Shown here: positions 34,527 to 58,435 of the stretch, piece after piece
Layout of the letters: every line of letters starts with the position of its first letter
Numbering within the stretch: position 1 is the first letter of the stretch
IMG/VR virus record: IMGVR_UViG_3300023117_001979
Source: an uncultured virus (IMG/VR IMGVR_UViG_3300023117_001979)
Lineage: Duplodnaviria > Heunggongvirae > Uroviricota > Caudoviricetes
DNA length: 64,000 nucleotides
Direction: 5' to 3' (one strand)
Program-made: the position numbers and the translations under genes
Notes under the pieces: generated by a model
Database searches by the model: none
Told to the model about the DNA's origin: nothing
The model's input: the letters and a program-made list of their open reading frames with translations, nothing else

Positions 34527-34546
34527 TCGCGTGAATAAGTGTATCA

Positions 34547-36763: not shown

Positions 36764-36779
36764 GTTCTGAACGACACAA

Positions 36780-36857
36780 GCACAACTCCCAGCTCACTGA
36801 GCTGTACAACGGGAGCAGGGGCGCCAAGGCTCCCCTGTTCCCCCCTGTGTAGGTAAG
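36780..36857 (+). ncRNA. conserved three-way-junction RNA motif, copy B
   Basis: Homologous to 32703-32779. Confidence 0.7.
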
Positions 36858-36963
36858 TCTCCAAGCCTGCCTAGGTCTTCGACCTGAGGCGAATACATTG
36901 ACCACTAGGTTTCCCCCCTTTGTTGGTCTTTGCTTGGCTTGTCATAAGTGAAATTGTATTAGC

Positions 36964-38721
36964 ATGAAACGAAAATTGTGCCTCTTGATTTTGAGCCTGC
37001 TACTGACCACCCCCTACATTACTGGAGGTGAGAATATTAATGGCTTCGCTGACGACACTGAAATCCCCAATGCGCACACGATGATGAAAGTCCGTGGACG
37101 CAAGAAGTGGAAGACTGTTACTGATGTTGCAAAACAGAAGAAAGCAGTCAACGCAGCTGCGCAACAAGCTTACCTTTCTTCACCCGAAGGCAAGGCTGAG
37201 CTTGCGGCTGCTTCCAAAGGAATTTCTCAGCGCAAGAAGCGCCTTATCTTGAAAGGCGACATTCCGTTTGCCCCGTCTATTGATGACCAACCTACATATT
37301 GGAAAGTCAACTCTTCCCTTCCTCGGAGGATTGATAGCTTCCAAAGTAACATTAGTTGGTTTGCGGGGTTCATTCGGAAAACACTGACAAATGCTGGGCT
37401 CAGTCGACGCCAAGCAAAGAAACTTGTCAAAGAGTATTTCCCAAGCAACCGAGCGATTCGCAAGGAAGCTGGGGAAACTAACAAAACTGCTGACGCACTC
37501 CGATACGAATATACGGTTCGTCAGATAGTACTTCACCGATACTTGAGGAATCATGTCAATGACTGGCGTGTTTCTCAAGTCAAATCTTTTAGAGAACAGC
37601 ACACAAAGGAGTGTGCAAAACTCGAACAACAATTGGTGATGATGGGAGGCTGGGAGTCTCCTGAAGATGTTCGCAAAAGCTATGACCATCGATTAAAGTC
37701 TGCTCTCACCCCAATGGTGAAGTATCAGGCTGGCGTGATGAAAGGCCTACAATTGGAAATGAAACAAATCCGAGAGTGGGCTGAAGTCAAAAATTATGCG
37801 ACCAAAGAAAATGTCCAATTATTGGGCAAAGTCCTAAAACAGTTAGAGGCAATACGCCTTGACCTCGATGTACTGCTTGAAAACGCAGTTAAGAAGAATA
37901 TGAAACTGACTAGGGCACAGGTACTTGCAGCGGCCAATAAAAAGGCAGCTGAAATCGAGCAACTTTGGAAGTCTCGCATTTCTGAAAAAAGAGCATCCAT
38001 CTTGCAAAAGCGAGATGAATACCTTGCGTCTGAAGACTACCGTACTCGAACTACTCTTCACTGGAAGATTAAGGAACACAAGTACACTATGAACGATTTT
38101 GATGATTTCATCAAACAATCACTGCGGATTCCCTATGATATGCTTTGCAATCTAGAGGAAAGCACACCGTGGACAAATTTTGAATCAAGCATAAACTGGA
38201 TAAAAGGTGAGCATGTTCTCACTGGCTTATTTACCAGGGCAGCTGAGTTTGACCTTGTCCACCACCCTGTACTCCTAAATAATGGAGTTACACCTTGGAG
38301 TCTCCGAGAGGCTCTAAGCATCAATGGTACATTCAACCAAAGCCAGCGGTTTATCTCTATTCCGCGTAGTACGGCTGAATTGGAAAAGATGACTTACCCC
38401 GAACTCACCTCATACGCGAAAGAGCGAGGAATCAAAACATGGGTTCGAGAATGGGTAGACGACAAAAGAACGGTTGTGCCAATGCCAGCTGACCAACTGG
38501 TCAGGGCTTGCGCTACGACTTTACACCTCGACTCTCCTAGGGACGGCCAAGTCCTTTACGAGCTAGGTATTCACTACAACGAAGTCTTTTCTGAATCTCA
38601 AATTTTCAAAAACAAGTGGGCTGGAGATGTTTACTCTTTCACTGCCCCTTCGGTTGAAGCCCATGCAAAGACAGTTATGGCTGAGAAGGTTGACCACTTA
38701 CTCAGCGACTTTGACTTCTGA
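36964..38721 (+). CDS. large basic helical protein with signal-like N-terminus and Rho-N/HEH-like motif
   Basis: MKRKLCLLILSLLL...; ELEKMTYPELTSYAKERGIK. Confidence 0.75.
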   Translation: MKRKLCLLILSLLLTTPYITGGENINGFADDTEIPNAHTMMKVRGRKKWKTVTDVAKQKKAVNAAAQQAYLSSPEGKAELAAASKGISQRKKRLILKGDIPFAPSIDDQPTYWKVNSSLPRRIDSFQSNISWFAGFIRKTLTNAGLSRRQAKKLVKEYFPSNRAIRKEAGETNKTADALRYEYTVRQIVLHRYLRNHVNDWRVSQVKSFREQHTKECAKLEQQLVMMGGWESPEDVRKSYDHRLKSALTPMVKYQAGVMKGLQLEMKQIREWAEVKNYATKENVQLLGKVLKQLEAIRLDLDVLLENAVKKNMKLTRAQVLAAANKKAAEIEQLWKSRISEKRASILQKRDEYLASEDYRTRTTLHWKIKEHKYTMNDFDDFIKQSLRIPYDMLCNLEESTPWTNFESSINWIKGEHVLTGLFTRAAEFDLVHHPVLLNNGVTPWSLREALSINGTFNQSQRFISIPRSTAELEKMTYPELTSYAKERGIKTWVREWVDDKRTVVPMPADQLVRACATTLHLDSPRDGQVLYELGIHYNEVFSESQIFKNKWAGDVYSFTAPSVEAHAKTVMAEKVDHLLSDFDF

Positions 38722-38785
38722 GCAAAAAGGGTGTGTTTAAGCTAAATCTCCATTTTCCCCTGGAGCTGCGGCTTGCCGATAAGTC

Positions 38786-39130
38786 ATGGTAAATGATAGC
38801 TTGATAGCGGAAACCAAACCGCTGAAAGAATTTCTGTTAGAGCAGATTAAAGCTAGTGTCCCTACCTACGAAAAAAGAATTCTTGGTTGGGGGGAACTAG
38901 CTACTGGTCTAGCAGTGGTTGTTAAGTTTCAACCACCAAAAAGCGAATTTAGCCTCAGTTCCATTACATCAGGAATTAGAGATGCTAGAGGTAGCTTGCG
39001 CAGTGAGCATACAATTCGAAGTTTGATAAAGTCGATGATGTTTTATCGTCTTATTGTTCAAACTAGCTATGCTAAGGGCGCTACTGCCTACCGTATTAAC
39101 TTTGAAATCCCAGGTGAGCTTTGTGCTTGA
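38786..39130 (+). CDS. putative winged-helix protein
   Basis: FSLSSI...SEHTIRSLIKSM...LIV...AYRIN. Confidence 0.55.
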   Translation: MVNDSLIAETKPLKEFLLEQIKASVPTYEKRILGWGELATGLAVVVKFQPPKSEFSLSSITSGIRDARGSLRSEHTIRSLIKSMMFYRLIVQTSYAKGATAYRINFEIPGELCA

Positions 39131-39371
39131 TAAAATTAAAAATGCCTGGAACAAGGTAATGTCTTCCACCCCTGTGGAAGAAGAGCTAAGCACTAACAAA
39201 GTTGACGATTGCGTTAACCTAGTTTTTGAAATGGCTAAACTCATGCAAATCGACCCGCAGCAAATCGTGGATGCTATGTATGAGCGATTAGAGGTCTTAA
39301 AGATGAAAGAACGATTTGACCCTGATATTGACGCAATTATGATATTGCATGGAGATAACCCCGATGCCTGA
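39054..39371 (+). CDS. hypothetical protein (start probably internal)
   Basis: Fills the gap between neighbours. Confidence 0.5.
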   Translation: MFKLAMLRALLPTVLTLKSQVSFVLDKIKNAWNKVMSSTPVEEELSTNKVDDCVNLVFEMAKLMQIDPQQIVDAMYERLEVLKMKERFDPDIDAIMILHGDNPDA

Positions 39372-39858
39372 TAGAACAGAAGATTTCGAGGCCATCTCTA
39401 ACGACGAGTGGTTTGACACTCATGTTTATCCTAAAATAAATAGGATAAGCCGAAGAGAAGATGGAATGTACTTTGTTGCTATATCCCAGTGTTGGGAAAG
39501 GCACAAGTATAACGATGAGTATGCTGGGCCTGTAAAATTGGCAGCATTTCCAAAAAAGGTTACAACGCCACAAAAATGGTTACCTAACTTCTCACATGCC
39601 GTCCGGTTTTGGCAAACGCTGAAAAATAAACTGGACAGTATCGGAGCTACTAATGCTCGTGTGGATATTCGCTTGTACCTTTCAGGTGCTAGCGGTCCCA
39701 AAGCCGCGTTACTTTACGCAATCGAGGACAATGTTTCTCGACAAGGCCTTCCTTACTTTGAAACTCCTTTCAATTGGGCAATTATTCCCATGGTTTGGAA
39801 TTCAGAAACAAGAAAATACGAGGAAGAGCCGACCATTTATTCTTACCCCAGTAGGTGA
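39349..39858 (+). CDS. hypothetical protein
   Basis: 169-aa ORF. Confidence 0.65.
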   Translation: MEITPMPDRTEDFEAISNDEWFDTHVYPKINRISRREDGMYFVAISQCWERHKYNDEYAGPVKLAAFPKKVTTPQKWLPNFSHAVRFWQTLKNKLDSIGATNARVDIRLYLSGASGPKAALLYAIEDNVSRQGLPYFETPFNWAIIPMVWNSETRKYEEEPTIYSYPSR

Positions 39859-39905
39859 GAGTAATAAGTGAACCGTGAAACGAAGTCACAATTTGGAGGA
39901 ATTTT

Positions 39906-40787
39906 ATGGTAAGAAAGAGACTCTTTCTTCACCCTACCTTTGACTGTTCTTTTGACCATGTTTGCAGGGAAGACTGCTACTTGTTAAACGATAAAACAGC
40001 TGATGAGAAAAAATTTCGCTTGCCTGATGAATACTGGGTTAATATTACTCGGTTAGCAGGCGAAAGTGGGTTTAAGGAGCTATCCTTACCAATTAATCCT
40101 CTTAGGGGCGTCACAGGCGTGAAAGACCCCTTGCACTGGTTGAGATTACTTGCTCCTGTTGCTAAGGAGTTTGAAATGGTAATCAATATAACCACTACTT
40201 TAGATGTTGCTCAAAAAATTGAGGAAACAGATATTGTCGACATTATTGCAATCTCAATTGACGATTATCGTACAGGAAAAGATTGGAATAAGCATGCCAA
40301 AAAGCTTGCAGCGCAAGTGGAAAGGCTACAAGGCTTTGGTATAGAAGTAAACTGTAACCTTAGCTATGACTCAGGTACTCAAATTAGCTTCTTGTTCAAT
40401 CGAGAAACACGAAGAAAATTCCTGGTCGAAACATTTGATTACACTACTGCCCTTTGGCCTAAACCGCTAAAGAAGGCAGGTATCAATACTATTGGAGCAG
40501 CGCGCCTAATTCAAAAAGGGCAGCGCAACGGCTCCGACTATCCTGACCTTATCGGTGAATCCGAAGGTTTCTTGGAAGATTATTGTATGTCCTTTGCGAG
40601 AGGAAATTCGAGTTGCGATGCTGGCTACGGTCAGTTATCTATCGATGCTTTTGGGCGGTTAGCTATCTGCCCTTACTCTCCTCACGGAGTTGATGTATCA
40701 ACACCTGAGAAATTTCAGGACTACCTAGTAAACACACTACCAAAGAACAAGGTAATCGAATCTTGTGATTTGATTGATGTTGAATAG
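39906..40787 (+). CDS. divergent radical-SAM-like protein with Twitch/SPASM-like C-terminus
   Basis: N-terminal CSFDHVCREDC, IAISID, CDAGYGQLSIDAFGRLAICPY. Confidence 0.6.
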   Translation: MVRKRLFLHPTFDCSFDHVCREDCYLLNDKTADEKKFRLPDEYWVNITRLAGESGFKELSLPINPLRGVTGVKDPLHWLRLLAPVAKEFEMVINITTTLDVAQKIEETDIVDIIAISIDDYRTGKDWNKHAKKLAAQVERLQGFGIEVNCNLSYDSGTQISFLFNRETRRKFLVETFDYTTALWPKPLKKAGINTIGAARLIQKGQRNGSDYPDLIGESEGFLEDYCMSFARGNSSCDAGYGQLSIDAFGRLAICPYSPHGVDVSTPEKFQDYLVNTLPKNKVIESCDLIDVE

Positions 40788-40845
40788 GGAAATAAGCGTG
40801 GTTGCTGTCTTGTGAGAATAGAACCGGGTACGCCCGCTCAAAAAG

Positions 40846-41391
40846 ATGCCACAGGACGAGCATAATACGACAAATATAACAGAGAGAACGCTTATTCCAC
40901 TCAAGAATGAGTGCTTTAAGAGAGACATTGAAACTGCTGAGCAACTGCTTTCTAACCAAGGCGAATTGCTCATGCGAGTTTTGCGAGAAAACCGCCCATA
41001 TTGGCGAGAGTGCCCTCACTGCGAGGCCTTTCTTAAGCCACAGCGGGACAAGAAAGTTGCAGACTGCGAGGAGCGAGGTTGGGTCCTACCTGACTTTGCT
41101 GTGCGCGGATATGCATTCCAGCGATTGGACGAGGTAGAGATAGTAGACGACGGAGTTGTCTGCAAGTTTCACCCTGACCATTATTTCGCTACACTTTCTG
41201 ACTTCTCCTCTATTTTTGCACCTAAGGTTGTCACTCCGACGACCGTTTGGGTGGATAGACTAAAGCGACCTGTTATTCAGAAGTCTAGAAACTGCATTGG
41301 TTTGAAGCACCCCCACTGTTCCATCTGTGGAATGTGTCATACTAACGCAAGGTCTCACGACCGTGGGCACCCTGGTACCCGCCGTTACTGA
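40846..41391 (+). CDS. Cys-rich hypothetical protein
   Basis: 181 aa; CPHC, CSIC..CH. Confidence 0.65.
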   Translation: MPQDEHNTTNITERTLIPLKNECFKRDIETAEQLLSNQGELLMRVLRENRPYWRECPHCEAFLKPQRDKKVADCEERGWVLPDFAVRGYAFQRLDEVEIVDDGVVCKFHPDHYFATLSDFSSIFAPKVVTPTTVWVDRLKRPVIQKSRNCIGLKHPHCSICGMCHTNARSHDRGHPGTRRY

Positions 41392-41416
41392 CTTCCCTTC
41401 GAGGACCAATCCTTGA

Positions 41417-41677
41417 TTGAATAAGCGTGGTTGCTGTCTTGTGCGAAGAATGTCACAAGACATGATTTTGATTGAGAAAGGAAAACTGATTAGGTTCGTA
41501 AAGGACCTGGTCGAGAGGAACAGCCAATGCTGTATAGACCAAATGTGCTGTCAGCACTACATTACCCACAAAGAGGAAATGGAAGACAGGGAGTACTACA
41601 ATACTCTACTCGAAGACTTCGGCCTTTCGCTTGAAGACTTTGAGTTCGACGAGCGTGGCTACTTTATCGAAGACTGA
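41417..41677 (+). CDS. small hypothetical protein (start probably ATG 41450 or 41462)
   Basis: Follows a motif copy at 41421. Confidence 0.55.
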   Translation: MNKRGCCLVRRMSQDMILIEKGKLIRFVKDLVERNSQCCIDQMCCQHYITHKEEMEDREYYNTLLEDFGLSLEDFEFDERGYFIED

Positions 41678-41802
41678 CCTCAATCCTGGACCGAAGCTTG
41701 ACTGTGGTTTGCCCGCCCACCGTCAATATTTAGGGCACACGACAGGTGCCAGTCCCCGGTACCTGTCTTCTAAGTGAATAAGCGTGTATAAGGTGAAAAA
41801 CC

Positions 41803-42150
41803 ATGGTAGAGCTAAAAGCAAACCAATTTTTACTCCGCTCAATAAATGTAAACGAGGTGGAGATAATGAAGGGAACGCACTGGTCTGAGACTCGCACCCT
41901 TCGAAGAAATGATGTTCTCGTACATAAGAGGACAGGACAACTTGCCCGTGTTGTCACGAGCGTGTATGGCTTCGACAATGACCGTCACCTTGGATATGGG
42001 GAAGTTTACAACATCGAGTATGTTGAATGTGTTAAAGGTGGGATGGAAACATGTTACCATTTGAAGCACAATTTTAATTCTAGCGGAATAGCTAGAGACT
42101 TTATATTCACTGAAGAACAGTGGCCTTACCCTTTAGAAGACGAGGAGTAA
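41803..42150 (+). CDS. hypothetical protein
   Basis: AGGTGA RBS. Confidence 0.65.
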   Translation: MVELKANQFLLRSINVNEVEIMKGTHWSETRTLRRNDVLVHKRTGQLARVVTSVYGFDNDRHLGYGEVYNIEYVECVKGGMETCYHLKHNFNSSGIARDFIFTEEQWPYPLEDEE

Positions 42151-42175
42151 GTAAATAAGCGTGTATTAGGAAACC

Positions 42176-42766
42176 ATGACTGAACAACAGTTTTATGGAC
42201 TATCCTTTACTTCACCAATTTTGGTGATAGGAAGAGGAGAACCTGGAGTAGGTAAAACTACTACTTTTCAAAAAATGAAAGAAGATATTGAGAAGGTCAA
42301 CCACCTTCGTGTCGGAATTTTTTCGACTGATAACATCTTCATTAACGCCGATGGCGAGTACGAATTTGTACCTTGGGCCATCGGAGCTGCACACATGTTT
42401 GAAAGCCATGAATTGATTTTATCAATGCGCGCTAGAGACTATGATGTGTACTTTTTGGATAACACTAACCTTCAACGCTGGGAGTACCTCTCCTATTTGC
42501 GTGAGGCCATGTATGAAAATTTCCGTGTGATGATTCTTGACCTTCGCGGTCAGGAAAACTACGGAAACATTCATGGTGTACCTGAAGATAAAGTTAAGCA
42601 GATGGCTGAGCTATCTGACAATCCATATCCCCCTCACATTGAATCATACTATGCAAAGAACCAAGAATACTATGACTGGGTTAAGATTACTGAAAGTGAC
42701 CCACGCATCATTCAAGGTTTGATTCTAATGCACTTAGGGGGAGGGCCTGTTGGACAAGATTCTTGA
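42176..42766 (+). CDS. P-loop kinase (AAA_33 / N4BP2-like polynucleotide kinase)
   Basis: RGEPGVGKTT, STD, AH, DNTNLQRWE, NIHGVP..KV..M. Confidence 0.8.
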   Translation: MTEQQFYGLSFTSPILVIGRGEPGVGKTTTFQKMKEDIEKVNHLRVGIFSTDNIFINADGEYEFVPWAIGAAHMFESHELILSMRARDYDVYFLDNTNLQRWEYLSYLREAMYENFRVMILDLRGQENYGNIHGVPEDKVKQMAELSDNPYPPHIESYYAKNQEYYDWVKITESDPRIIQGLILMHLGGGPVGQDS

Positions 42767-43445
42767 ACAACTACATGGCAACAAAAGCTTCCGTGTGAAG
42801 CATTGTCCTCCTGACAAATATGGAGAGTGGCAGCGAAAAGAGCATGAAGATTGGCAACGAAACGCCAAGCCTGAAACTGATTGCTGCTGCACAGATGTAA
42901 TTTATACCGCTGAAGAGTGGAGTAAAGAAAGCTTGCTAATGAGCGGCTTTGAATACGCATCTATTATCATAGCCAGTGCTAATACTAAGTGCTGGAAATG
43001 GGAACACGATATTGGCTCTTGGAAGTTCAGTCCTAAAATAGTCGGCACACATGGTAGTCGGCTCGAATATAGGCAAGTGGACCGAAATATGAGCGTAAGG
43101 AAAATTCGTGACTTAATCAAAATGGCGAGCCATAAGGAAGCGCATATGCTAGCTAGGGCTTCGCCGGAATTGCAAAAAACCTACAACAAGGGACATGTCA
43201 ACATTAGAGGTGTCCCGTTTCCTATAAATCGGCTAAGAAAGGCCCTCATGTACCAAGATGAAAATACCCTTTTCGACTTGACAGTTATTACTTACGGGCC
43301 CGATTGGAAAGAACGAGAAAAAGAAGCATGTTCAGTGCTTTTTATGCTGGGTGGACAACATCACATTTTAGTCCATTCTCAAAGTCACTCGTATACCAAG
43401 GAGTTGAAAGGTATGACCTCTATTGGTTATGACGCTTACGATTAG
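42750..43445 (+). CDS. hypothetical protein
   Basis: 231-aa ORF, GGGGGAGG RBS. Confidence 0.65.
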   Translation: MDKILEQLHGNKSFRVKHCPPDKYGEWQRKEHEDWQRNAKPETDCCCTDVIYTAEEWSKESLLMSGFEYASIIIASANTKCWKWEHDIGSWKFSPKIVGTHGSRLEYRQVDRNMSVRKIRDLIKMASHKEAHMLARASPELQKTYNKGHVNIRGVPFPINRLRKALMYQDENTLFDLTVITYGPDWKEREKEACSVLFMLGGQHHILVHSQSHSYTKELKGMTSIGYDAYD

Positions 43446-43454
43446 GTGAAATAA

Positions 43455-43787
43455 GTGGACAGAATTTGTAAATTATGCCGCATTACATTTGACTTCAAAG
43501 GTGGAAGTCTTTTGTGCTCGCTCTCATGCCAAGATGTGTATGAGCGCTTGCGAAACAACCTCTACTCTAGAACGGTAGCACCTGCAAAAAGCACGGTTGA
43601 CCGCCTAGAAACACAGACTAGGATAGCAAAGGAAGAACACCGCACTGCGGTTAGTACCCATAACGCTTTTTGTCAGTCTGACAACCCGCTTAAGTTTTTG
43701 ATAGAAACACTTGATGACGACACTTATCGGGCTGTTGTAAAAGAAATAGGAGATGATGTTCTTGCCTCAACTGAAAATTCGGATTGA
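43455..43787 (+). CDS. zinc-finger + coiled-coil protein
   Basis: CKLC...CSLSC; GTG start in ATAAGTG. Confidence 0.65.
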   Translation: MDRICKLCRITFDFKGGSLLCSLSCQDVYERLRNNLYSRTVAPAKSTVDRLETQTRIAKEEHRTAVSTHNAFCQSDNPLKFLIETLDDDTYRAVVKEIGDDVLASTENSD

Positions 43788-43862
43788 AACTGAAGAATAT
43801 ATCTATGAAGAATACTTTGAAGCTTGAGCTTCGAGTTTCTTTAGTCCTATAAGGTAGGTAAA

Positions 43863-44261
43863 ATGTCATTTGATATGCAACTAACCGTTACTGCCACTGG
43901 GTCGGATGTGTTTACACTCCTTCGTGCCCTTAATTTGGCAGGGCTGGAGCACCTCGTTGAGGAAGCCCCAGCTAAAGAAATTGTCGAGGTTTCTAACTTT
44001 GACAAATCTGATGGAATTGACTTGGATATGCTTCCAGGTACAGTTTCTTTTTCAAAGTCTCCTAAAAGGAAGAAGCGAAAGCGTCGTGCTCCGCTTACTG
44101 ACATTCAGAAGGCTAAAATCGAAGAGCTAGCACTGGCTAACAGTGCCGCAAAGATTGCGAAATGCCTCGATATTCCCTACAACACCGTTTGGGCGTTTGC
44201 GAGAGCAAACGATATTCAATTTGGTGTTAAAGAAAAAGGCGGAAGACCGCCTAAAAACTAA
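43863..44261 (+). CDS. C-terminal helix-turn-helix protein
   Basis: SAAKIAKCLDIPYNTVWAF; GGRPPK. Confidence 0.65.
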   Translation: MSFDMQLTVTATGSDVFTLLRALNLAGLEHLVEEAPAKEIVEVSNFDKSDGIDLDMLPGTVSFSKSPKRKKRKRRAPLTDIQKAKIEELALANSAAKIAKCLDIPYNTVWAFARANDIQFGVKEKGGRPPKN

Positions 44262-44294
44262 CTGCTTTCCTTAGTTTCTAGGGTAAGTATAAGC

Positions 44295-44624
44295 GTGGAT
44301 AAACAACCTAACACGACCCTTGCGGAGCTAGAAGAGCTTTGCACTGAATGGAATAGCCGTTCAGAAAAACCCTCAGCGGAGTACTTAACTTGGCTCCCTG
44401 AATTTCATGAAACAGTCGTAGAGGCTAGAGGAGGCTTGTTTGCTCTCTTCTTTGCTTACTGCGATTTAGATGAAGACAATGACCCGTCTAACGGAGTATA
44501 TCGTTGTCTTTATCCTCTCCTCCCGATAGGAAGCGGAGGCGTTGCTCTTATTACAAGGAACCCTGAAACCTTGGAGCACGAAGTTGAGAAGTTTTTGGCC
44601 CAAATACGCCATCAGCTCAGCTAA
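44295..44624 (+). CDS. hypothetical protein
   Basis: GTG start in ATAAGCGTG. Confidence 0.65.
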   Translation: MDKQPNTTLAELEELCTEWNSRSEKPSAEYLTWLPEFHETVVEARGGLFALFFAYCDLDEDNDPSNGVYRCLYPLLPIGSGGVALITRNPETLEHEVEKFLAQIRHQLS

Positions 44625-44632
44625 AAATAAGC

Positions 44633-45379
44633 GTGGAACAATTTACAAGCGACACGACCCTGGAGTATTTCTTAGAAAACAAGGAGAAGTTCATTCTCCC
44701 TGTTGATGAGACTCCGACGGACGAGCAAGTACTCAGTCTGTTAAACAACGCAGCCGTTACAATGAATTTTGAAAACGGTGACATTGATGGGATTGGATTT
44801 GATATTGACTCCCTGAAATTTATGCAAAACAACCCTCACCACATGGAGGGTCTACTCGTTAACCACATTGCCCTGATGCTTTACCGCCTCAGGTTCTTTG
44901 CTGACGAGCTAACTCCTCAAGAGTATGAAATCCTTGAGCGAGCCGTGTTTTGGAGCGACATTGGTAAGCAGGCAACTGCAAAACCAAAGAAACTGGAAGA
45001 CGGGACTGAAATCACGACTGCATACGGTCATGCTAAGAAGTCCTCAGAAATTCTCAGGTCCGCCCAAGGCCCTATATACCCAGCTATTGACTACTGGTGG
45101 TTCAAGCCTGTTAATTGGCTGGTGTGTGAGCACATGAATGCTCACAACCTAGAAAAGAACAAGGAAAAAACGGTTATACCTGATTTCCTTGTGCCTCAAA
45201 TCGAGGGACTAAAGCCCTGGGAATTCCCGGAGTGGGAGTACCTCGTTATACCCCACACTGCGGGTAAAGGATTCAACAAGCAAAGTTATGCTTGGATTAA
45301 CCGCAATCACAAGCTACTCCGTATTAAGGGTAAGCTAGACGAAGACGGTCGTATTTCCGACCTTTCTTTTAGTCTGTGA
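44633..45379 (+). CDS. HD-domain-like phosphohydrolase (degenerate HD: SD)
   Basis: HHMEG.L.NH, FWSDIGK, AYGHA..S, EHM. Confidence 0.6.
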   Translation: MEQFTSDTTLEYFLENKEKFILPVDETPTDEQVLSLLNNAAVTMNFENGDIDGIGFDIDSLKFMQNNPHHMEGLLVNHIALMLYRLRFFADELTPQEYEILERAVFWSDIGKQATAKPKKLEDGTEITTAYGHAKKSSEILRSAQGPIYPAIDYWWFKPVNWLVCEHMNAHNLEKNKEKTVIPDFLVPQIEGLKPWEFPEWEYLVIPHTAGKGFNKQSYAWINRNHKLLRIKGKLDEDGRISDLSFSL

Positions 45380-45394
45380 TATATAAGTGTGAAA

Positions 45395-45425
45395 GTAGTA
45401 CTACTTTCCCAAGCGCTACAATATG
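45395..45425 (+). promoter_or_regulatory. bipartite element copy 3
   Basis: GTAGTACTAC tttcccaa GCGCTACAATATG. Confidence 0.8.
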
Positions 45426-45427
45426 AG

Positions 45428-45920
45428 CCAGGGAGTGCATACTGCTCAGTATGTCCCCGTGCATTTATGCATATGGCCTGAGTAACGCTAGTGAAACATT
45501 AGTGATTAGTGATAAGTGAATAGGATAGAACAACTTGGACCGTGGCGGTAAACTGTCACCCATTCAAGTTATCCTTGAAATTGCCGCCTTTGCGAACCCC
45601 GATGCATTGGCGAAAGAGTAGGGCATTAGTGAATCAGGTTCTCAACCTGTGAAACTAATGAATTTCGAGACAAGTAAAATACGCTTTCCGAAGCGGTTTT
45701 GCCTGTTTTAAGGACTTGAAGTAACCACGACTCTAGCCGAGTTGACTCCGGGTTACTTCTCGTAGGCTCTCCTGCCCTAACGGGTAGAGAGATGGAGAAA
45801 TTTCAGCAAATAGCGACCTTGTTGCAACGAGTTAGCTGTTTGTACTGTGAAAACACTCTAATTTGGGCTTCACAGCCGATTTTCGAGTGTAAAACATGAA
45901 ATTAGCGTGGTGAACCAGAA
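45428..45920 (+). ncRNA. putative ~0.5 kb structured RNA 2a
   Basis: No ORF in the track; serial hairpins between element copies 3 and 4. Confidence 0.6.
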
Positions 45921-45928
45921 ATGTAGTA

Positions 45929-45959
45929 GTAGTACTACTTTGCTGGGCGCTACAACATG
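45929..45959 (+). promoter_or_regulatory. bipartite element copy 4
   Basis: GTAGTACTAC tttgctgg GCGCTACAACATG. Confidence 0.8.
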
Positions 45960-46884
45960 AACCGGGGGAGGAGTAATATCCAAACTCGGTTTTTTATTAG
46001 GCGTGGACAATGTGTGAAGGAGCAAGTACTTCGGGAAAGTGAATTCACACTAAGCTGACTCTGAGAGTCGGTAACGCTGATGATGCCCGACCTCCGTGCC
46101 TTCATGGCCTGTAACCGGAGGCGGGACTTCGACACATCGGGATGGCAGAAATACTGTGAGAGAGCAGTTAGATTGTCGCATGAGTAAGCAGCCGTCGCGC
46201 TGCAAGAGACTGTCAACTGGCAGTTTCGTAGACTGGAGACAGTTGCTCTAAGGGTGGAAGCAGTCAGAAGCTTCCTTGAGGGTAAACCATAATCCCTCTC
46301 CCTGTCCCGATAGTTAGACACGGTAAAGGCGGCGGTTTCGAAGACCAAAGCCTAGTGTTTGAAGGTGACTGAATGTGGGCAACTGAACTGCCCTAAAGTA
46401 CTGAGATGAAGCGGCTGGAGCAATCCGAAGCAAGGCAAGGAGTGGGTGACCACTTGAGCCTACAACAAATCTCAGGTCGGATGCAAGAAATTGTACTTTC
46501 TCATCATCCGTGGGAGTGCCAATGGCCCCCCTTCACCTTTCTAGTGTAGTAAACAAGCCGACCAAGATTAATTTTGGTTTCGGTGGATAATAGAAGCACG
46601 GCAATAAGGGCTAGTACCCGGAGTCGTGAACGACAGGAAAAGAGGAGAATACTCCTCCCTGGGACTACACACAAAGTGTGGAATTCTGATTCATTAAGCA
46701 GCATACGCAAGCTGTGAAGAAAGAATGAAACATAGGAATAGCTTTCCATTAACGATTGTATGCTGGGCGCAGCGCATGATTGGGATAGTGAAAATTGCGG
46801 ATTTATTCGTGATTCTTCCTACTTGCTACATTCCCCCCTGGGAATGAGCTAATAAGTCTTGAAATTGTAACGGAGGTCTGAAAA

Positions 46885-46968
46885 ATGGCCTCAAAACCGT
46901 TGAAAGACCTTTTCGATGAGCAGTCTGAATTATATGACAGCTTATTCGGAGATGACGCCAAGTTGTAA
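46885..46968 (+). CDS. 27-aa small ORF MASKPLKDLFDEQSELYDSLFGDDAKL
   Basis: GGAGGT RBS 7 nt upstream; manual translation. Confidence 0.45.
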   Translation: MASKPLKDLFDEQSELYDSLFGDDAKL

Positions 46969-46997
46969 AAATGACTTTGGCAATTCAAAAAATTCCT

Positions 46998-47033
46998 GGC
47001 GCATGTCTTACGGCATGCGCCTAAATTTTTTTT
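46998..47033 (+). terminator. hairpin + T tract
   Basis: GGCGCATGTC-ttac-GGCATGCGCC then taaaTTTTTTTT. Confidence 0.65.
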
Positions 47034-47057
47034 CTTATACTTGTACACAGGTCATTA

Positions 47058-47277
47058 CCTACGACCTCAATAAGTGGCACCACTGCGTCCCACCTGTGTT
47101 CAAGTGATGAAGTTGGGGTCGTAGGGAAGAGGGCAACAAAACCCCTGGACAGCTTTCCTGGGCGAGAATGAAATCGGGTCACCTAACCTGGTGGAGTTCT
47201 GACCTTAATGGATTACAAGACTTGTCTTGTTCCGGGACGCACGAGGCTTCACAACCTCGTGGGCTCTTGAACGCAGG
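47058..47277 (+). ncRNA. multiply pseudoknotted or switchable RNA element upstream of the DUF1257-like gene
   Basis: Three mutually crossing helices of 13, 8 and 12 bp. Confidence 0.6.
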
Positions 47278-47579
47278 GGTGTCACACCCAGTGTGGAAAC
47301 TGCCGTTTAGGCGGTTAAAACATTACAGACTACCTATTTGGTAGCTGTAAATTAATAATAAGATGCCTTTAGGCCGTGACCGAAGGTGTAGCAGGTACTC
47401 AGTTCTAATACAGGTACCTTTTATTTCATATTAAACATTAATATGGGGTAAAGAAGGTGGTTTAATATTGCCAAGGCTTTTTAGCCGAGGAGAACATGAA
47501 GCTATTGAGGGTGCAAACCCGTAACGAAAGTCAGATAGCAGGGTGGGATAGGCCACCTCCCATTAGGAACGGTAATAAT

Positions 47580-48128
47580 ATGAGTACAACTCAGAAAATT
47601 TCCATTAAGGGGCTCAAAATCGGTGAAGACCAATTTGAGCTTCTTGGCGAAACCGTCACTGAACTTGTCGGTGAAGCCGGAACAGTAACTATCAAAGAAA
47701 AAGGTAGTGAAGGACTCCTGATTAGGAGTCGACACCATGTGTCAGCAAATGCTAAGTTTGCTGACATTAAAATTCGTTTTCATGGTGCCAACTCAGATGT
47801 TGGTATCTATGTTGACGCAGATGGCCAAATTGGAATGGCCTGGGACGGATATGTGGTTCGTGGAAACGACCAAATGAAATCTGTCTTTGAAGGACGGTCT
47901 GACCGTCATACTTTTGAACGCAACTTGAACGCTATGTTCGTTGCAAAAACATTTGAAGAGACTGCAGTCCGTAAAGGATTCAGTACCTCAGGTGTTAAGC
48001 GTGTCTCACTCAAAGAAGAGAAAATGGGACAGTTTGAACTTGAGCTTGACACCGGTGGCCTTGGCTTCGGTGGCTTTGGAAACACAAATGAAAACACCAT
48101 GACTAACTCCCTACGAGGTGGTTTGTAA
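47580..48128 (+). CDS. DUF1257/Ycf35-like protein (start reassigned to MSTTQ)
   Basis: ADIKI...DVGI....G....WD.Y...LNAMF......A.RKGF pattern; next to a DUF2997-like gene. Confidence 0.6.
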   Translation: MSTTQKISIKGLKIGEDQFELLGETVTELVGEAGTVTIKEKGSEGLLIRSRHHVSANAKFADIKIRFHGANSDVGIYVDADGQIGMAWDGYVVRGNDQMKSVFEGRSDRHTFERNLNAMFVAKTFEETAVRKGFSTSGVKRVSLKEEKMGQFELELDTGGLGFGGFGNTNENTMTNSLRGGL

Positions 48129-48340
48129 TGGGTAAAATCAAAGTTATTGTAACTGAAGAAGGCGAAATTAAGATTGAAGCTAAAGAAGGGTTTGAAGGGA
48201 AGTCGTGCCAAGAGGCAATTGACTTCGTTATGCAAAACCTTCCAACTGGCTTTGCCTTTGAAGAGTTGGAGACTATCCGACATGGTAACTTTTCAGTAGT
48301 TGCAGAAAACCCAAAACAGGTTTACTTGCAAAAAGACTGA
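48128..48340 (+). CDS. DUF2997-like protein
   Basis: IKVIVTEEGEIKIEAKEGFEGKSCQEA. Confidence 0.75.
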   Translation: MGKIKVIVTEEGEIKIEAKEGFEGKSCQEAIDFVMQNLPTGFAFEELETIRHGNFSVVAENPKQVYLQKD

Positions 48341-48344
48341 ACCA

Positions 48345-50240
48345 ATAAGGAACGGTAAATATCCCTTGAGGGGGCGTCAGCCCCCAATGAAAAGAAAAAT
48401 TCTTTTCAGCCGCTGCGAGGAACACTTTCGTGTTCCTAGCCGCGTGATGAAAAGAATGACACATAATGCTAATAATGTCCTATGACAAAATATGCCGCGC
48501 TAAGGAACACGCAAGTGTTCCTCGCAGCGGCTGAAAAGTAGAAAACGAAACACAAGTATCGACACAGCGGTCGACAAAACTTCGACGAAGTTTACCCGAC
48601 GGTAATAGATACACTGTTTCTGAAATTATGATTGCTTTGATGCTTGAGGAGCTGAAGATGGAGATAAAAAGGTGCCAATCAGGTACCTGACACATATCAT
48701 CTCAAGTCTAGACCATAATATCCGCGGCTACCAATCTGAAAGATGGTGACCAAGATATTTGGAAATCTTTCCCAGAAGATTCCTGGACGGTACTGAGATT
48801 CCAAACTCTGGCTCTGATTAACTTTGAGACATGTCAAATGTCAGAATCCAATAATGCAAGCACTATAGCTTGCCATGGATGAATACGATACGGCTGGATT
48901 GTGGTGAGTAACCACAGTAAAATTTTGCCAGGGCACACACTCTGTGTTCTGTCTTGCCCAGTGGACCACAAGAAAGATGATTTCATGATGGCCAAGTTAA
49001 TCGAAACAAAAGGTCAACTTGCACCTGGTAATTGCCCGGTGTATGGAGAGAGCTCGCGAGGTTGCCACTGCGCAACTAAGCACTAAGAGTTACGACCGGC
49101 CTCTTCCTGAAGAGACAACTACTAGTATCAAAAAATCGTGTTACTGAAAAGCTATTCGAATAAAGAAAGACCACAGTGTCGCGACATTGCAGGTTAGTGC
49201 CACCATGGCACGACTACTGAACACCAATGTCTACAGAGACCTATTGGTCGTCGAAATGAGCCGAGCATCTATCTTGACATATGTCAGGATAGAGAACATT
49301 GAGTTCTAGTTTTGGTAAACCAGCTGGTAATACAAGCTGGAAATACAAAATAAAGATTCGAATAAAGAAATTCACTAAGTCTACTTGCGGAACCAGCGCT
49401 ATGGACAAGATGGTAACAGCAAGATGATTGCAAATAGCCAGTACTTGTAACCATAACACATGTCACGAGTTCTGAATTCACAATCGTGAAGATATTACTC
49501 AACTACAGTAGCTGCACCGCATAATCGATGGATAAATCAAAACATTAGCAAAATACATCTTAACTCCCGTTTTGGCACATGCCAAAACACTGGTAAAGAC
49601 TATTTGAGAGTGAGGGGGACCTTGGTCTATGAACCAAAGGTACCCCGAAACCGGTGTGAAAAAGACTCTGTCACTAATGCCTGCATGGCACGGTACAGAA
49701 CCTTTCGTTATCGAACCAGAGAAGAACTTCGGTTCCTCTAGTACCAACGCGGATTAGTGGTCCGCCTCTCACAGGGGCACCATTACGCAACTGAAATTCT
49801 AATCGATTAACGAAATAAAATCAGGTAACTAAACTTCCTAGAATTCTAAAGATACGACGAGTACTTGCAAAGAATGTAAACAGAGTTTACACACAGCAAT
49901 GTCGTCACAATAATTTAGAGCCCTGAGGACGAGGTTACTTAAATCCACCAAATTTCCCAACTGGAGTTGCTCCAGTAAACTGAGGAGCTAATAGATGCTC
50001 CAAATGTCCATACAAGGATATTCAGAAATTACTCTCGCGCGCTGAGGCGCCACTAAGAAAACTTGCAACACTGCAGCAGCGGCGTTGCAACTTCTTTGCC
50101 ACACATGGTCAGGTAGCTTGTACAAAGCATGCTGCCATGTAATAGATATACGACATGTGTCACGCATGGCGGGTCGATTTCACCCTTTCCTGTCCGGGAG
50201 GGTTGCCAATCGCCCGTGGTACCGATTCCGCCAGTTTGAA
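48345..50240 (+). ncRNA. putative ~1.9 kb hairpin-dense non-coding region 3
   Basis: Only short ORFs (82 aa or less) in any frame; many short palindromic hairpins. Confidence 0.55.
48402..48538. repeat. 26-bp perfect inverted repeat
   Basis: CTTTTCAGCCGCTGCGAGGAACACTT (48402-48427) / AAGTGTTCCTCGCAGCGGCTGAAAAG (48513-48538). Confidence 0.95.
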
Positions 50241-50260
50241 AATTGTATTAGGTAGGATAA

Positions 50261-52174
50261 ATGTCACAAGACAAAGTATACCAAAATTTCGTGGAAAAGA
50301 GAGCAAACCTCTCTAATACTTCACGACTTCTGCAACTGTGGAAAGCCACAGAACCAGGAGTAATTATTGAAACGCCAGAAATGGCCGAGACTGTAAGCGA
50401 AATTACTCGACTTGCAGCAACACCGGAAGCTCGTAATATTGCCCCTAAATGGCTTGGCGAGCGTCCTGAAGTGGTTAGAGTTTCTTTCTCTAACTACCCA
50501 CAAGAACTCCGTGTAATCGAGCCAACAATAACGAAGCTCGCTAACGGAAAACAAACGGTTACCTACACCAACCCAATTGAGGGTGATGGTGATTTTAACC
50601 CAATGGATGGCAACGCGAAAGTGATGCCTTACGGAGACCCAGTCGATGTGCCTGAAAACTTCTTGGAACCATTTCCAAAAAGCGCGCACACTAAGATTTT
50701 GGGTGCTTCGCAACGAGTTAAATTCCGAGCTAGGGCTGACCCTGAGAGCATTATTATGACTTTCTTGGAATCCCTTGACGAATTTGATTCACAAAAAAAT
50801 GGACGAGGACGAATTTATGTTGTCGAAGCCGCAGAAAATATGTTGACCCTGAAAACCATGGTCGAAATGCTGCGTGAAAAAATTGACATGTTCCGAAACC
50901 AGCAAACGACTGGTCTCGCGATTGTTCTTCTTGTTCCACTTGGATTCGATAAGATGCCTGACAGCATCAAAGAAAGTTTCTTCAGTATGAAGTGGGAGCG
51001 ACCCCATAAGACACACTGGCGTGACTTAATCCAATCATTCGCTGCGGCCAAAAATATGGTCATGGACGAAGATAGCAACGGAAACCCGATAGTGGGTGTT
51101 TCAGCTAAAAACCTAGAGCGTTGTGTCAGTGCTGTTACTGGTATGACTAAAGCTCGTGGTGAAGCTGCCTTGCTAATGTGTACTGCAAAGTACAACAAAA
51201 TTCTCCCTGAAGTAATTCTAAGAGAAAAGTCAAACCTGGTTAAAGACTACGGATTGACACTACACAACCCTGACCCTGATGAAGCGGTTGGGGGCATGCA
51301 ACAATACCACGAATGGTTAGCGGAAGAAATCGCATGTGCGACCCCGCTTGCTGCTGGATATGGACTTGTTGGTAATCGAATGGTTATCCTAGCAGGTCCT
51401 CCAGGTACGGGTAAGTCGCTTGGTGTAAAGGTGCTTGGCTCCATGACTGGTCGTCCAATTGTTCGACTAGCTGCAACTGACCTTCGTAAGAAGTATGTCG
51501 GTGACGGAGAAGCACGACTACAAATCGCCATTGACTTGGCGGGTAGCATGGACGGAATCATTTGGATTGATGAAGTCGAAAAGCTAGTACAAAACACATC
51601 AGCAGAACGAGATGGTGGCTCAAGTGCCTCCGTTCTCTCTATTTTGTTGACTGAGATTCAAGAGAATAAGTCGAACATTATGTTCGCATTTACAGCAAAC
51701 CGCGTCGAAATGCTCCCCCCGGAGTTTGTTGACCGTGCTGGTTCTCGATTTTACTTTGGCTATCCTACGCGTGAGGAGCAACTTGCGATTCTTCGCATTC
51801 ATATTGCTGCTATGCGTAGGTACGAGCCAGATAACCCTGAAGCCGATGAGCGTGGCTATGCTCGCCGGAACCCTGACGACTATCCATTCTTGGAAGAACT
51901 CCTGAAGTACACCGATGGATGTAACGGTCGCCAGATTGCGAATGCTGTTCAAGCAAGCTTCAAAATTGCGTTCACCACACACCAAGGTGAGCCAACAAAG
52001 GAAGACTTCGTAAAGGGTATCAATCGAAACGCTATGAATTCCACTCCCCAAAAGGAGTTGGAGCTTATTCGCGACAACTGTTTGGCTCGTGGTTTCATCC
52101 CAGCCAATTCCGAAACTGAAGAAGAAGCTGAGTCTGTCGACTTCGGTGAAGTAGGAATCGCAGGTCGTCTTTGA
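50261..52174 (+). CDS. Ycf46-like AAA+ ATPase
   Basis: VGGM, Walker A GPPGTGKS, KYVGDGE, Walker B IWIDEVEK, TANRVEMLPPE; inactive N-terminal AAA-like region. Confidence 0.88.
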   Translation: MSQDKVYQNFVEKRANLSNTSRLLQLWKATEPGVIIETPEMAETVSEITRLAATPEARNIAPKWLGERPEVVRVSFSNYPQELRVIEPTITKLANGKQTVTYTNPIEGDGDFNPMDGNAKVMPYGDPVDVPENFLEPFPKSAHTKILGASQRVKFRARADPESIIMTFLESLDEFDSQKNGRGRIYVVEAAENMLTLKTMVEMLREKIDMFRNQQTTGLAIVLLVPLGFDKMPDSIKESFFSMKWERPHKTHWRDLIQSFAAAKNMVMDEDSNGNPIVGVSAKNLERCVSAVTGMTKARGEAALLMCTAKYNKILPEVILREKSNLVKDYGLTLHNPDPDEAVGGMQQYHEWLAEEIACATPLAAGYGLVGNRMVILAGPPGTGKSLGVKVLGSMTGRPIVRLAATDLRKKYVGDGEARLQIAIDLAGSMDGIIWIDEVEKLVQNTSAERDGGSSASVLSILLTEIQENKSNIMFAFTANRVEMLPPEFVDRAGSRFYFGYPTREEQLAILRIHIAAMRRYEPDNPEADERGYARRNPDDYPFLEELLKYTDGCNGRQIANAVQASFKIAFTTHQGEPTKEDFVKGINRNAMNSTPQKELELIRDNCLARGFIPANSETEEEAESVDFGEVGIAGRL

Positions 52175-57643: not shown

Positions 57644-58435
57644 GTGGGACTAGAAATTAACCTACAATTTACTGCAAAATCCGTGGCGGAGCTTAGAGAA
57701 CAGCTGACAGCTGCTTTGAGTGAGCTCAACGGAAGCGCAGTGGTGGAAACACCAAACAAGGCTACGAAAACCGAGAGGCCTAGTGCTGAGACTCCTAAAA
57801 AGGAAAAGAAGCCTAAAAGGCCTAAGAAAACGGTAAGGCGACCTAAAGCGCCAAAGGCTAGCTTAGAATGTAAAAGCTGCAAAGCAACGAGCACCCCTCA
57901 ATGGCGCCGTAAAACGGCTCCTGAAGGGCCTCTTTGTAATGCATGTCACATGAAGCTATACAAAGCTGAAAGAGCGGCCAAAAATAGCCCAAAAGAGAGT
58001 AGTGCAGAACGGTCTAGGCGGATTCGCCAAGAAAAGATTGGGTCTGCAGCTGCCTCAAAAAAGAAAAACAAACCTAAGGTAGAGAAGCTAGAGTTTGAAC
58101 CTGCTGAAAAAATCGAAGCGGATATGTCCACTGAAGCATTTTACTTGTGGGCCCAGTCATACTTGCCAGGAATGGTGATGCGTGACAAAACCTTCCTTGT
58201 TGCTTCTAAGGTCATTGAGACCTGGTTTACTACCCTAAGGCCACAGTCTGAATATGACAAGTGGTGTCTTAAAAATTTACAAACATTTACTGATGAAACT
58301 CGTAAGATGTTTGAAGTTTACCAAAAGGTACACCCTACCATTTTGATGATTCAAGATGCCGGGGACAATGTTGTACTTATGGTGAATAACCCGTCGGCCC
58401 TGACTTTTTCAAAGTTAGAAGGCCTACTGGAGTGA
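57644..58435 (+). CDS. GATA-type zinc-finger protein
   Basis: CKSC-KATSTPQWRRKTAPEGPL-CNAC (CX2CX18CX2C with TPxWR and LCNAC), flanked by Lys-rich segments. Confidence 0.85.
   Translation: MGLEINLQFTAKSVAELREQLTAALSELNGSAVVETPNKATKTERPSAETPKKEKKPKRPKKTVRRPKAPKASLECKSCKATSTPQWRRKTAPEGPLCNACHMKLYKAERAAKNSPKESSAERSRRIRQEKIGSAAASKKKNKPKVEKLEFEPAEKIEADMSTEAFYLWAQSYLPGMVMRDKTFLVASKVIETWFTTLRPQSEYDKWCLKNLQTFTDETRKMFEVYQKVHPTILMIQDAGDNVVLMVNNPSALTFSKLEGLLE

Follow-up and report, generated by a model that had tools for sequence, protein, structure and literature searches.

A syntenic noncoding slot with structured ends and a hypervariable interior in a magrovirus group D-like archaeal element: a candidate long noncoding RNA unit

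Introduction

GOLLD, ROOL, OLE, and HEARO are large noncoding RNAs of phages and bacteria, and all of them are represented in Rfam. Other described loci with which a noncoding stretch of a mobile element can be compared are the antisense-RNA copy-number and incompatibility regions of plasmids (ColE1 RNA I/RNA II and R1 CopA), the immunity regions of heteroimmune phages, and the attC sites of integrons and subterminal hairpins of IS200/IS605, in which the inverted repeat structure is kept and the sequence is free. Here we describe region 3, a hairpin-dense stretch of about 1.9 kb in the 64,000-nt DNA (hereafter the window) of the uncultured virus record IMGVR_UViG_3300023117_001979. A sequence-only reading had taken region 3 to be most likely a structured RNA, with an insertion element or a fragmented or recoded gene as alternatives.

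Group D magroviruses of Marine Group II archaea are described in the relevant passages of PMC5434244 as carrying genes for DNA polymerase (DNAP), thermosome, resolvase, and RNA polymerase A and no morphogenetic genes, and their nature is given there as undetermined. The corresponding passages of PMC10160649 and PMC11706807 report that they lack a capsid gene, are enriched in the cellular fraction, and are possibly plasmid-like. They are abundant in coastal and ocean archaea, and whether they are viruses, plasmids, or something else is treated as still open in these accounts (PMC5434244, PMC10160649). The gene set of the window fits this group, which lacks the major capsid protein (MCP): the thermosome, archaeal-type RNA polymerase, family B DNA polymerase (PolB), and resolvase are all found on the window's single contig. 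Judged from its genes, the window is a magrovirus group D-like archaeal element and not a bacteriophage.

We propose, with about an even chance of being right, that region 3 is a long noncoding RNA unit whose ends serve stabilisation or recognition and whose interior diversifies. This function-level reading draws on a slot kept in all relatives with complete flanks, a covarying element at the 3' end, an interior that diverges faster than the synonymous sites next to it, and discrete contigs in RNA libraries.

Results

Region 3 occupies a syntenic slot

Relatives were collected with the AAA ATPase encoded downstream of region 3 (alignment A1) in a scan of metagenome contigs, which gave 80 loci (L002–L013 orthologous, L001 being the contig of the window itself), and in a scan of species genomes, which also gave 80 loci (L081 and L082 orthologous). 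The AAA orthologues are full-length and 45–93% identical, and L081 lies within a metagenome-assembled genome (MAG) of a Methanobacteriota archaeon. Both flanks were present in six of the 14 relatives (L002, L003, L009, L012, L013, and L081), and L007 was short by only about 80 nt; the remaining relatives end inside the spacer, except for L082, which ends inside the AAA gene. The order of the DUF1257-like gene, DUF2997, spacer, and AAA gene was kept in all six, and the DUF2997-like protein was 54–83% identical in the five metagenome loci and 80% in L081. The seven relatives with a complete spacer (AAA 45–81% identical) all had an ORF-poor (open reading frame-poor) spacer of 1665–2511 nt with more A than T on the + strand.

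Since the slot is syntenic in all these relatives and holds no transposase-sized ORF, the proposal of an insertion element is unsupported. Both flanking genes are complete and have full-length orthologues, and no split gene halves, the mark of an intron, surround region 3. Conservation detected by blastn was limited to the first 60–190 nt and the last 100–130 nt of the spacer, plus tiny islands. No inverted repeat joins the two ends of the spacer. A panhandle of GGAACGGUA with UACCGAUUCC was not supported, the best end-to-end duplexes having z-scores of -1.0 to -2.5 with no locus specificity (matched loci were no better than mismatched ones).

The same three gene families were also found together in cyanobacteria. 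When the ORFs of three cyanobacterial loci (L087, L096, and L128) were compared with Pfam, DUF1257 and AAA were found in all three and DUF2997 in two, with the genes lying within about 0.3–0.5 kb, and in L096 and L128 the slot is filled by an ORF of 83–84 aa. This slot ORF (83–85 aa) belongs to no Pfam family and is conserved in Nostocales, with 25 distinct copies among 45 candidate ORFs in L083–L137 and a consensus that opens MSELPKEYPLLHIY. Descent of region 3 from the cyanobacterial protein was tried and rejected: the best profile match had an E-value of 0.75 on the spacers versus 0.42 on the control strand, and in the absence of a significant match the EEPIVI resemblance is unsupported. 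As far as the sequences tell, the archaeal elements have a noncoding unit of 2 kb in the position that a small gene occupies in the bacterial module.

Both ends carry conserved structures

At the 3' end of region 3, an alignment of 12 loci (A4) supported a three-way junction of 22 pairs, in which 90.8% of the cells were paired compared with 78.0% in column shuffles (a value reached by 0 of 500). Twelve of the 22 pairs were changed on both sides, as in only 1 of 500 shuffles, and only 31–63% of the cells were paired when the partner was slid by 1–3 columns. The closing stem varies by lineage (GGCGG/CCGCC, GGUGG/CCACC, GCUGG/CCAGC, and UCCGG/CCGGA), and CAYGTGTCA..CAU and the loops CCUGUCCGG and AUCGCCC are invariant. 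Because it contains G-U pairs, the 3' element is strand-specific and therefore acts as RNA. The folding energy of the element alone was ordinary (z -0.81), its support being covariation and not stability. An alternative pairing of GGGUCGAU with AUCGCCC left only 38% of cells paired, in a test weakened by a one-column alignment offset. A covariance model of the element (R1) detected one copy each in the window, in L002–L013 (among loci reaching upstream of the AAA gene), and in G001, the genome that contains L081; there was no second copy in the window, and among 151 genomes searched of the order of G001, only G001 gave a match.

The 5' end folds alike in seven loci, with a G/C hairpin of 5–7 bp, an A-rich linker (AAUGAAAAG), and a helix of 27–52 long-range pairs. 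The hairpin, P1, was predicted in all six loci covering the 5' end and in L081 (GGGAGC..GCUCCC). The arm sequences of the long helix are unrelated between lineages and the fold is the same; between the arms lie about 50 nt in which the yGACACA and G(A/T)CC motifs are kept. Its pairs are almost purely Watson–Crick, only 2 of 284 pairs in the seven loci being G-U. The 43-nt inverted repeat is precisely where the DNA run's contigs are interrupted (48402-48542), and the segment between the arms forms a contig of its own of 141 nt; this break may be an assembly-graph effect or reflect two orientations.

The interior diverges faster than neighbouring synonymous sites

To follow the interior at short evolutionary distance, three close pairs (L003/L004, L008/L009, and L012/L013) whose AAA genes are 97–98% identical in DNA were compared. 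The four-fold sites of the AAA genes differ by 4.7% (L003/L004), 4.0% (L008/L009), and 7.6% (L012/L013), whereas the aligned columns of the spacer interiors differ by 45%, 24%, and 41%, with 241, 104, and 434 gap columns, respectively. The long flanks of the three pairs are 89–94% identical, both flanks of L012/L013 being 93% identical. blastn aligned neither the interior of L003/L004 nor most of that of L012/L013, save for one or a few islands, and L008/L009 is a mosaic of blocks that are 90–100% identical and blocks of 50–80 nt without similarity. A stretch of 2 kb that is always kept and yet diverges several-fold faster than the neutral proxy calls for diversifying selection, block exchange between strains, or local hypermutation. 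Adenine-specific mutation of the kind produced by diversity-generating retroelements (DGR) was considered and rejected, the substitution spectrum being unbiased. Across 401 genomes belonging to the order of G001, nothing matched the interior significantly; a host-derived interior was rejected, as seven of these genomes matched at E 0.003–0.009 per genome, which is about chance. The sharp difference between near-identical replicons seen here is the behaviour expected of an antisense-RNA incompatibility or immunity locus.

Region 3 is noncoding, with small coding-like islands

In agreement with the sequence-only reading, stops occur in all frames: TAA, TAG, and TGA are each found 3–20 times in every one of the six frames of 48340-50261. 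With all three kinds of stop in all six frames, region 3 is noncoding under any genetic code, and a recoded gene is excluded. The longest ORF inside region 3 starting with ATG, GTG, or TTG has 82 aa and lies on the - strand, and the longest open frame is 84 codons in the window, 96–161 in five metagenome spacers, and 86 in L081. The period-3 Fourier power of region 3 was 1.8, compared with 5.4–30 in 11 genes, and all 12 orthologous spacers longer than 1 kb also had no period-3 signal (1.4–4.8). The best-of-three-frames codon score was -0.69 versus 7.38 ± 3.46 in genes, with similar values for RNA 1 and RNA 2, the two other ORF-free stretches of the window. Substitutions between L008 and L009 were distributed by codon phase as 51/53/65 (p 0.36), that is, with no periodicity. 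A tblastx search with all spacers, covering the remainder of the window and the loci, gave no match, which, within that search space, rejects the idea of donor cassettes for a gene elsewhere.

Some short pieces of the interior do resemble protein. The frame MARLLNTNVYRDLL on the + strand, pointed out earlier as protein-like, lies in an open segment (49148-49306). The top per-codon coding score among open segments (0.213) belongs to a 42-codon ATG ORF with gene-like codon usage, which contains the island EPFVIEPEKN. This island is the sole interior stretch common to the window and its relatives (a blastn match of 31 nt). It was present in 9 of 12 spacers, where its variation is of the third-position type, and over its 10 codons in nine loci it varies at nine third, five first, and four second positions (tallied by eye). 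Further islands are common to subsets of lineages in changing order: L011 and L012 share 48 stop-free codons at 35% identity, and WYEEPIVIEPEK is the same protein sequence in L009 and L012 though 5 of 36 bases differ.

These islands raise the possibility, which we regard as quite improbable, that region 3 consists of micro-ORFs or an unconventional or decaying gene; translation would then be confined to the islands EPxVxEPEK, LIFEVLEEPFV, TLEEFYYL..IQYP, and FFYSDAPVPRA, the remainder being spacer or intron-like. The protein identity of WYEEPIVIEPEK and the third-position variation of EPFVIEPEKN speak for translation, as do the 48 codons shared by L011 and L012 and the codon usage of the 42-codon ORF. 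Against it, in-frame stops interrupt the conserved nucleotides of the island in L003, L004, and L007, three of the nine loci, its start codon is missing in most copies, the island is missing from L081, whose spacer is complete, and the order of islands changes by lineage. Moreover, neither substitutions nor composition show period 3, no spliced joint was seen in the RNA contigs, and no protein relative emerged; the 140-codon frame of L012, compared with 1.84 billion representative proteins, matched only a repetitive one (E 1e-4). Of the earlier suggestion of a fragmented gene, what stands is the few islands of 10–48 codons with coding-type substitutions; an intact long ORF was found in no relative, and the best island is broken as described. 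From this pattern we read the islands as probable small pieces, translated now or formerly, in a mainly noncoding unit.

Region 3 is present in RNA libraries as a discrete contig

Eleven of the 24 listed runs containing the stretch, which are labelled salt marsh metagenome, are RNA libraries. Contigs of three RNA runs (X1, X9, and X10) and one DNA run were placed on 32001-52000. In two of the three RNA runs, region 3 was assembled as a discrete contig identical to the window, at 48365-50231 in X9 (depth 77) and 48360-50231 in X10 (depth 17). The contigs of the flanking genes had depths of 129 and 156 in X9 and of 41 and 45 in X10, and the depth of region 3 was above that of the lowest gene bins (35–47 in X9 and 5–9 in X10). 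The X9 and X10 contigs break between genes throughout the block. Those of region 3 stop at the end of the 3' element's closing stem, and those of the AAA gene begin at 50262 and 50271. The AAA contigs run from the start codon, and the start motif of that gene is itself downstream of the 3' element, so the element is not within the AAA mRNA as assembled. No splice or circular joint was found in region 3 in the contigs of the three RNA runs, contigs being a form of data that drops rare forms. Region 3 is very probably transcribed as its own unit.

The gap ahead of region 3 contains a gene-start-like motif. Its core, AGGAACGGTAA, occurs exactly twice in the window, at 48348-48358 and at 47565-47575, directly 5' of the DUF1257-like gene, where an RNA contig begins at 47579; the true start of that gene is likely ATG 47580, not 47496. 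AATAAGG..GGTAAAT of the motif is kept in L002, L003, and L009. Region 3 is preceded by AATAAGGAACGGTAAA, a variant of ATAAGYG, which occurs 33 times in the window versus 14.9 ± 4.0 expected, mainly at gene borders on the + strand, where almost every border of the block 34293-63946 has it. Inside region 3, ATAAGYG is absent from both strands, so there is no antisense start motif of that type. ATAAGYG, at which RNA contigs also break, gives rise to many artefactual GTG starts in the ORF list. Several RNA contigs start at or next to a start codon and have the look of leaderless mRNA.

Region 3 differs in several respects from RNA 1 and RNA 2. All three are ORF-free, lie on the same strand of the same element, and show a comparable lack of coding signal. 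RNA 1 and RNA 2 have a bipartite motif of their own (GTAGTACTAC-N8-GCGCTACAAYATG) and T-run ends; the statement that region 3 has neither was confirmed, as GTACTAC-N-GCTACAA occurs only at 32108, 32800, 45398, and 45932, and there is no stem-plus-T-run at the 3' end of region 3. Their contigs reach depths of up to 3.9e3 for RNA 1 (bin 32668-33334) and of 1.1e3–7.6e4 for RNA 2 (bin 46008-46674), compared with 17–77 for region 3 and tens to hundreds for genes. In addition, the RNA 2 region aligns at 71–94% with L002, L003, and L009, whereas the interior of region 3 is unalignable. RNA 1 and RNA 2 match no Rfam family. A 50-nt skip in RNA 2 (46623-46674) was seen in one contig each of X1 and X9 and in none of the DNA run, with a short side of 23 nt that makes it weak. 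C-to-T-only clusters were found in one X9 contig each, with six changes in 38 nt (32925-32962) and eight in 96 nt (47657-47752); strain variation, damage, and deamination or editing are possible causes.

Hairpins exceed shuffled controls, mostly near the 5' end

The palindromes listed by the sequence-only reading are present (48577-48593, 49268-49293, and 49569-49588), as is the 15-nt direct repeat ATTCGAATAAAGAAA at 49154 and 49356 (family D1). Hairpin density is above that of shuffled controls: with a stem of at least 8 and a loop of at most 12, five perfect hairpins were seen versus 0.2 ± 0.4 in 60 dinucleotide shuffles, and with a stem of at least 7, seven versus 1.1 expected. Eight coding stretches of the window had 0–4 versus 0.3–0.9 expected. 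Three of the five perfect hairpins lie within the first 200 nt of region 3. The mean folding z-score over 18 overlapping 200-nt windows was -3.2 on the + strand and -2.4 on the - strand. Coding DNA of the + strand in 32001-56200 also folds better than its dinucleotide shuffles (47 of 81 windows of 200 nt below -2), and the DNA of - strand genes read on + had a mean z of only -0.81.

There is no CRISPR or tandem-repeat array in region 3, where we found one 13-nt unit repeated 2.8 times, direct-repeat families of 2–3 loose copies, and no iterons. Rfam 15, whose families include group I and II introns, GOLLD, ROOL, OLE, rRNA, and RNase P, gave no match at the gathering score across the window; at E ≤ 10, the five sub-threshold matches in 48200-50400 were chance-level miRNA and snoRNA models, of which the top one, a plant miRNA model covering the long hairpin, reached 40.7 bits versus a cut-off of 100. 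A C/D-box reading, judged by eye, showed a single RUGAUGA-like site and was set aside.

The element and its host

The window is part of a large, gene-dense element, as seen from its ORFs and family assignments (Table 1); its own contig, L001, is 135.7 kb long and exceeds the unclosed fragments described in the magrovirus papers. The RNA polymerase matched archaeal A' plus A'' models at E 8e-122 and bacterial beta' at 1.5e-36 (NCBIfam). Shine–Dalgarno-like GGAGG precedes many ATGs and genes overlap, which points to a prokaryotic host. Eukaryote-typical domains were also seen in proteins of the element (57644-58435, 34547-36763, and 3280-4014): a GATA zinc finger (E 8.9e-8), SAP (E 6e-6), and a weak Arf/small-GTPase match. 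No close DNA relative was found among deposited phages, and viral contigs gave no relative by the AAA protein, by the DUF1257-like gene read as 210 aa (47496-48128), or by the bipartite motif. AATTGTATTAG, which marks the downstream boundary of region 3, also precedes gene 36964.

Table 1 Features of region 3, its neighbourhood, and the element, with positions in the window unless a locus is named.
Feature	Position	Strand	Remarks
DUF1257-like gene, upstream neighbour	47580-48128	+	Matches to DUF1257 clusters score 0.90-0.91
DUF2997-like 70-aa protein, upstream neighbour	48128-48340	+	Pfam PF11211, E 7.8e-5, just under cut-off
Gene-start-like motif CAATAAGGAACGGTAAA	48343-48359	+	In the gap between RNA contigs
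Transcribed unit, ~1.87 kb, extent from RNA-library contigs	48360-50231	+	Strand deduced from A>T skew and the orientation of genes rather than from reads
P1 hairpin GGGGGC-GUCA-GCCCCC	48370-48385	+	
Long helix, arms 48402-48444 / 48496-48538	48402-48538	+	Inverted repeat I1, 43-nt arms, 91% complementary
Hypervariable ORF-free interior	48545-50150	+	
42-codon ATG ORF	49629-49757	+	Island EPFVIEPEKN at 49697-49726
3' element, 83-nt three-way junction	50153-50235	+	
AATTGTATTAG motif ahead of AAA gene	50241-50251	+	Boundary mark, part of next unit; kept in 9/12 rows of alignment A2
AAA ATPase, 637 aa, downstream neighbour	50261-52174	+	Pfam PF00004, E 1.7e-25
RNA 1	32800-34285		ORF-free, behind bipartite motif, T-run end
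RNA 2	45932-47133		ORF-free, behind bipartite motif, T-run end
Chaperonin (thermosome)	623-2173		NCBIfam archaeal thermosomes, E 6e-150, above cut-off
GmrSD-type nuclease	15746-17479	-	Pfam GmrSD_N and GmrSD_C; PADLOC HEC-06, E 7.5e-56
Serine recombinase	18216-19139		
PolB	22394-25135		
RNA polymerase largest subunit, 1668 aa	25105-30111	-	Fused A'/A'', archaeal type
RNase H	30113-30550		
Cyanobacterial slot ORF	L096 5033-5284; L128 5036-5290		Between DUF2997 and AAA ATPase genes

Discussion

The structured RNA first proposed for region 3 holds in part. The stretch is noncoding, forms a unit in RNA libraries, and has structured ends, the 3' one with covariation, but the interior of about 1.6 kb shows no conserved pairing in the close pair L008/L009. 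We favour a long noncoding RNA unit over a structured RNA in the full sense. In such a unit, transcription would start at about 48360 behind the start motif shared with the DUF1257-like gene, and the two structured domains would mark out and protect the ends of the RNA, interact with a conserved partner (the neighbouring proteins being one possibility), or do both. The interior would be retained for its presence and hairpin-rich character and not for its sequence, being driven to diversify or swapped between strains, as would be expected of a strain-specific recognition, immunity, or decoy role and not of a catalytic or scaffold RNA.

Several observations weigh against this proposal. In X1, a single contig (47184-51504) makes region 3 continuous with both neighbours. 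Contigs carry no strand and no true ends, and with a single depth each they give no reliable level; they indicate only that the stretch occurs in RNA libraries, with a boundary that suggests a unit, and DNA carry-over is a possible source of them. The near absence of G-U pairs from the long helix fits a DNA-level inverted repeat equally with a double-stranded RNA selected for a perfect helix. Without the 5' domain, the folding z-score is -2.34 (n=8), compared with -2.59 (n=53) and -2.11 (n=28) for adjacent + strand coding DNA; the interior thus folds like its neighbours, and the energy signal belongs to the whole transcribed block, not to region 3. The interior folds as well on the - strand (minimum free energy, MFE, -630.8) as on the + strand (-618.8). 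In the interior of L008/L009, changed pairs were kept at 0.355 versus 0.332 ± 0.042 for random complementary positions, that is, there is no conserved pairing. With no conserved pairing, both strands folding alike, and z-scores like those of coding DNA, an RNA-structure function of the interior is unsupported. Finally, short islands with coding-type substitutions exist.

The X1 contig would also suit a different explanation, in which two unrelated cis-acting RNA elements, one acting in the 3'-UTR (untranslated region) or processing of DUF1257/DUF2997 and the other in upstream regulation of the AAA gene, are separated by decaying small-gene filler, and the RNA is read-through. We consider this unlikely, though it deserves weight: conservation is confined to the two ends, the interior evolves without periodicity or conserved pairing, and the cyanobacterial DUF1257, DUF2997, and AAA genes are tightly packed, with a small ORF in the slot of two loci. 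Yet a functionless 1.7–2.5 kb would then have been kept in seven complete relatives, down to 45% AAA identity, in a tightly packed element, and neutral filler should match the four-fold sites (4–8%) instead of differing by 24–45%. The 3' element is moreover not in the AAA mRNA as assembled, and region 3 has its own gene-start motif.

The rarity of G-U pairs (2 of 284) and the equal folding of both strands bear likewise on a DNA-level element, in which the inverted repeat and palindromes would act as cruciform or hairpin DNA in an origin or primer region, a cassette-swapping recombination site, or an invertible switch. Block replacement in the interior, the break of the DNA-run contigs at the inverted repeat, and the serine recombinase and RNase H encoded by the element would agree with it. 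We nevertheless find it improbable. The window has no G+C or GC-skew shift at 48–50 kb and region 3 no iterons; the 3' element, with its G-U pairs, acts as RNA, the stretch is in RNA libraries, and the recombinase gene is 30 kb off. A recombinase site recognised by its sequence is unlikely, given that the arms are not kept in sequence.

A more specific form of the long noncoding RNA unit would be an RNA-based determinant of strain specificity of a plasmid-like or virus-like archaeal element, the hairpin-rich interior, Watson–Crick on both strands, serving RNA–RNA recognition (sense/antisense or loop–loop) between co-resident related elements in immunity, incompatibility, or copy control. Frequency-dependent selection would then diversify the interior, and the 5' and 3' domains would dock the DUF1257, DUF2997, and AAA proteins. 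We offer this only as a speculative possibility of low probability; if true, no hypervariable regulatory RNA of kilobase scale would have been described before it in mobile elements of archaea.

The terms noncoding, non-coding, and intergenic are absent from the main texts of PMC5434244, PMC10160649, and PMC11706807 (term search), and the combination of a conserved slot with a hypervariable RNA was found neither in a full-text literature search nor in this term search of the magrovirus papers. Group D elements carry a conserved, very probably expressed noncoding slot of 2 kb with two new structured RNA motifs outside any Rfam family. This provides a handle on how these elements compete, persist, or evade hosts, and two compact motifs with which to find and type them in metagenomes.

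Compared with known systems, region 3 resembles GOLLD, ROOL, OLE, and HEARO in being kilobase-scale and ORF-free, in residing on a mobile or viral element, and in having conserved structured parts. In those RNAs, however, structure is conserved over the full length, whereas in region 3 it is confined to about 280 nt at the ends, and the host is archaeal. Because the interior outpaces neighbouring synonymous sites, region 3 does not belong with conserved large structured RNAs such as GOLLD and ROOL. Unlike attC sites and IS200/IS605 hairpins, it is a single site at a fixed position in a transcribed unit with no adjacent integrase or transposase. The cyanobacterial clusters of DUF1257, DUF2997, small ORF, and AAA share the three flanking families in the same order; their slot of about 0.3–0.5 kb contains an ORF, whereas that of the archaeal elements is 1.7–2.5 kb and ORF-free, with no detectable homology between the two. 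Compared with the antisense incompatibility and immunity regions, to which a functional likeness would be conjectural, region 3 is 3–20 times longer and contains no ATAAGYG-type start motif on either strand. Like them, it is hairpin-rich and noncoding, differs between near-identical replicons, has stems that are Watson–Crick on both strands, and lies on an element suspected to be plasmid-like.

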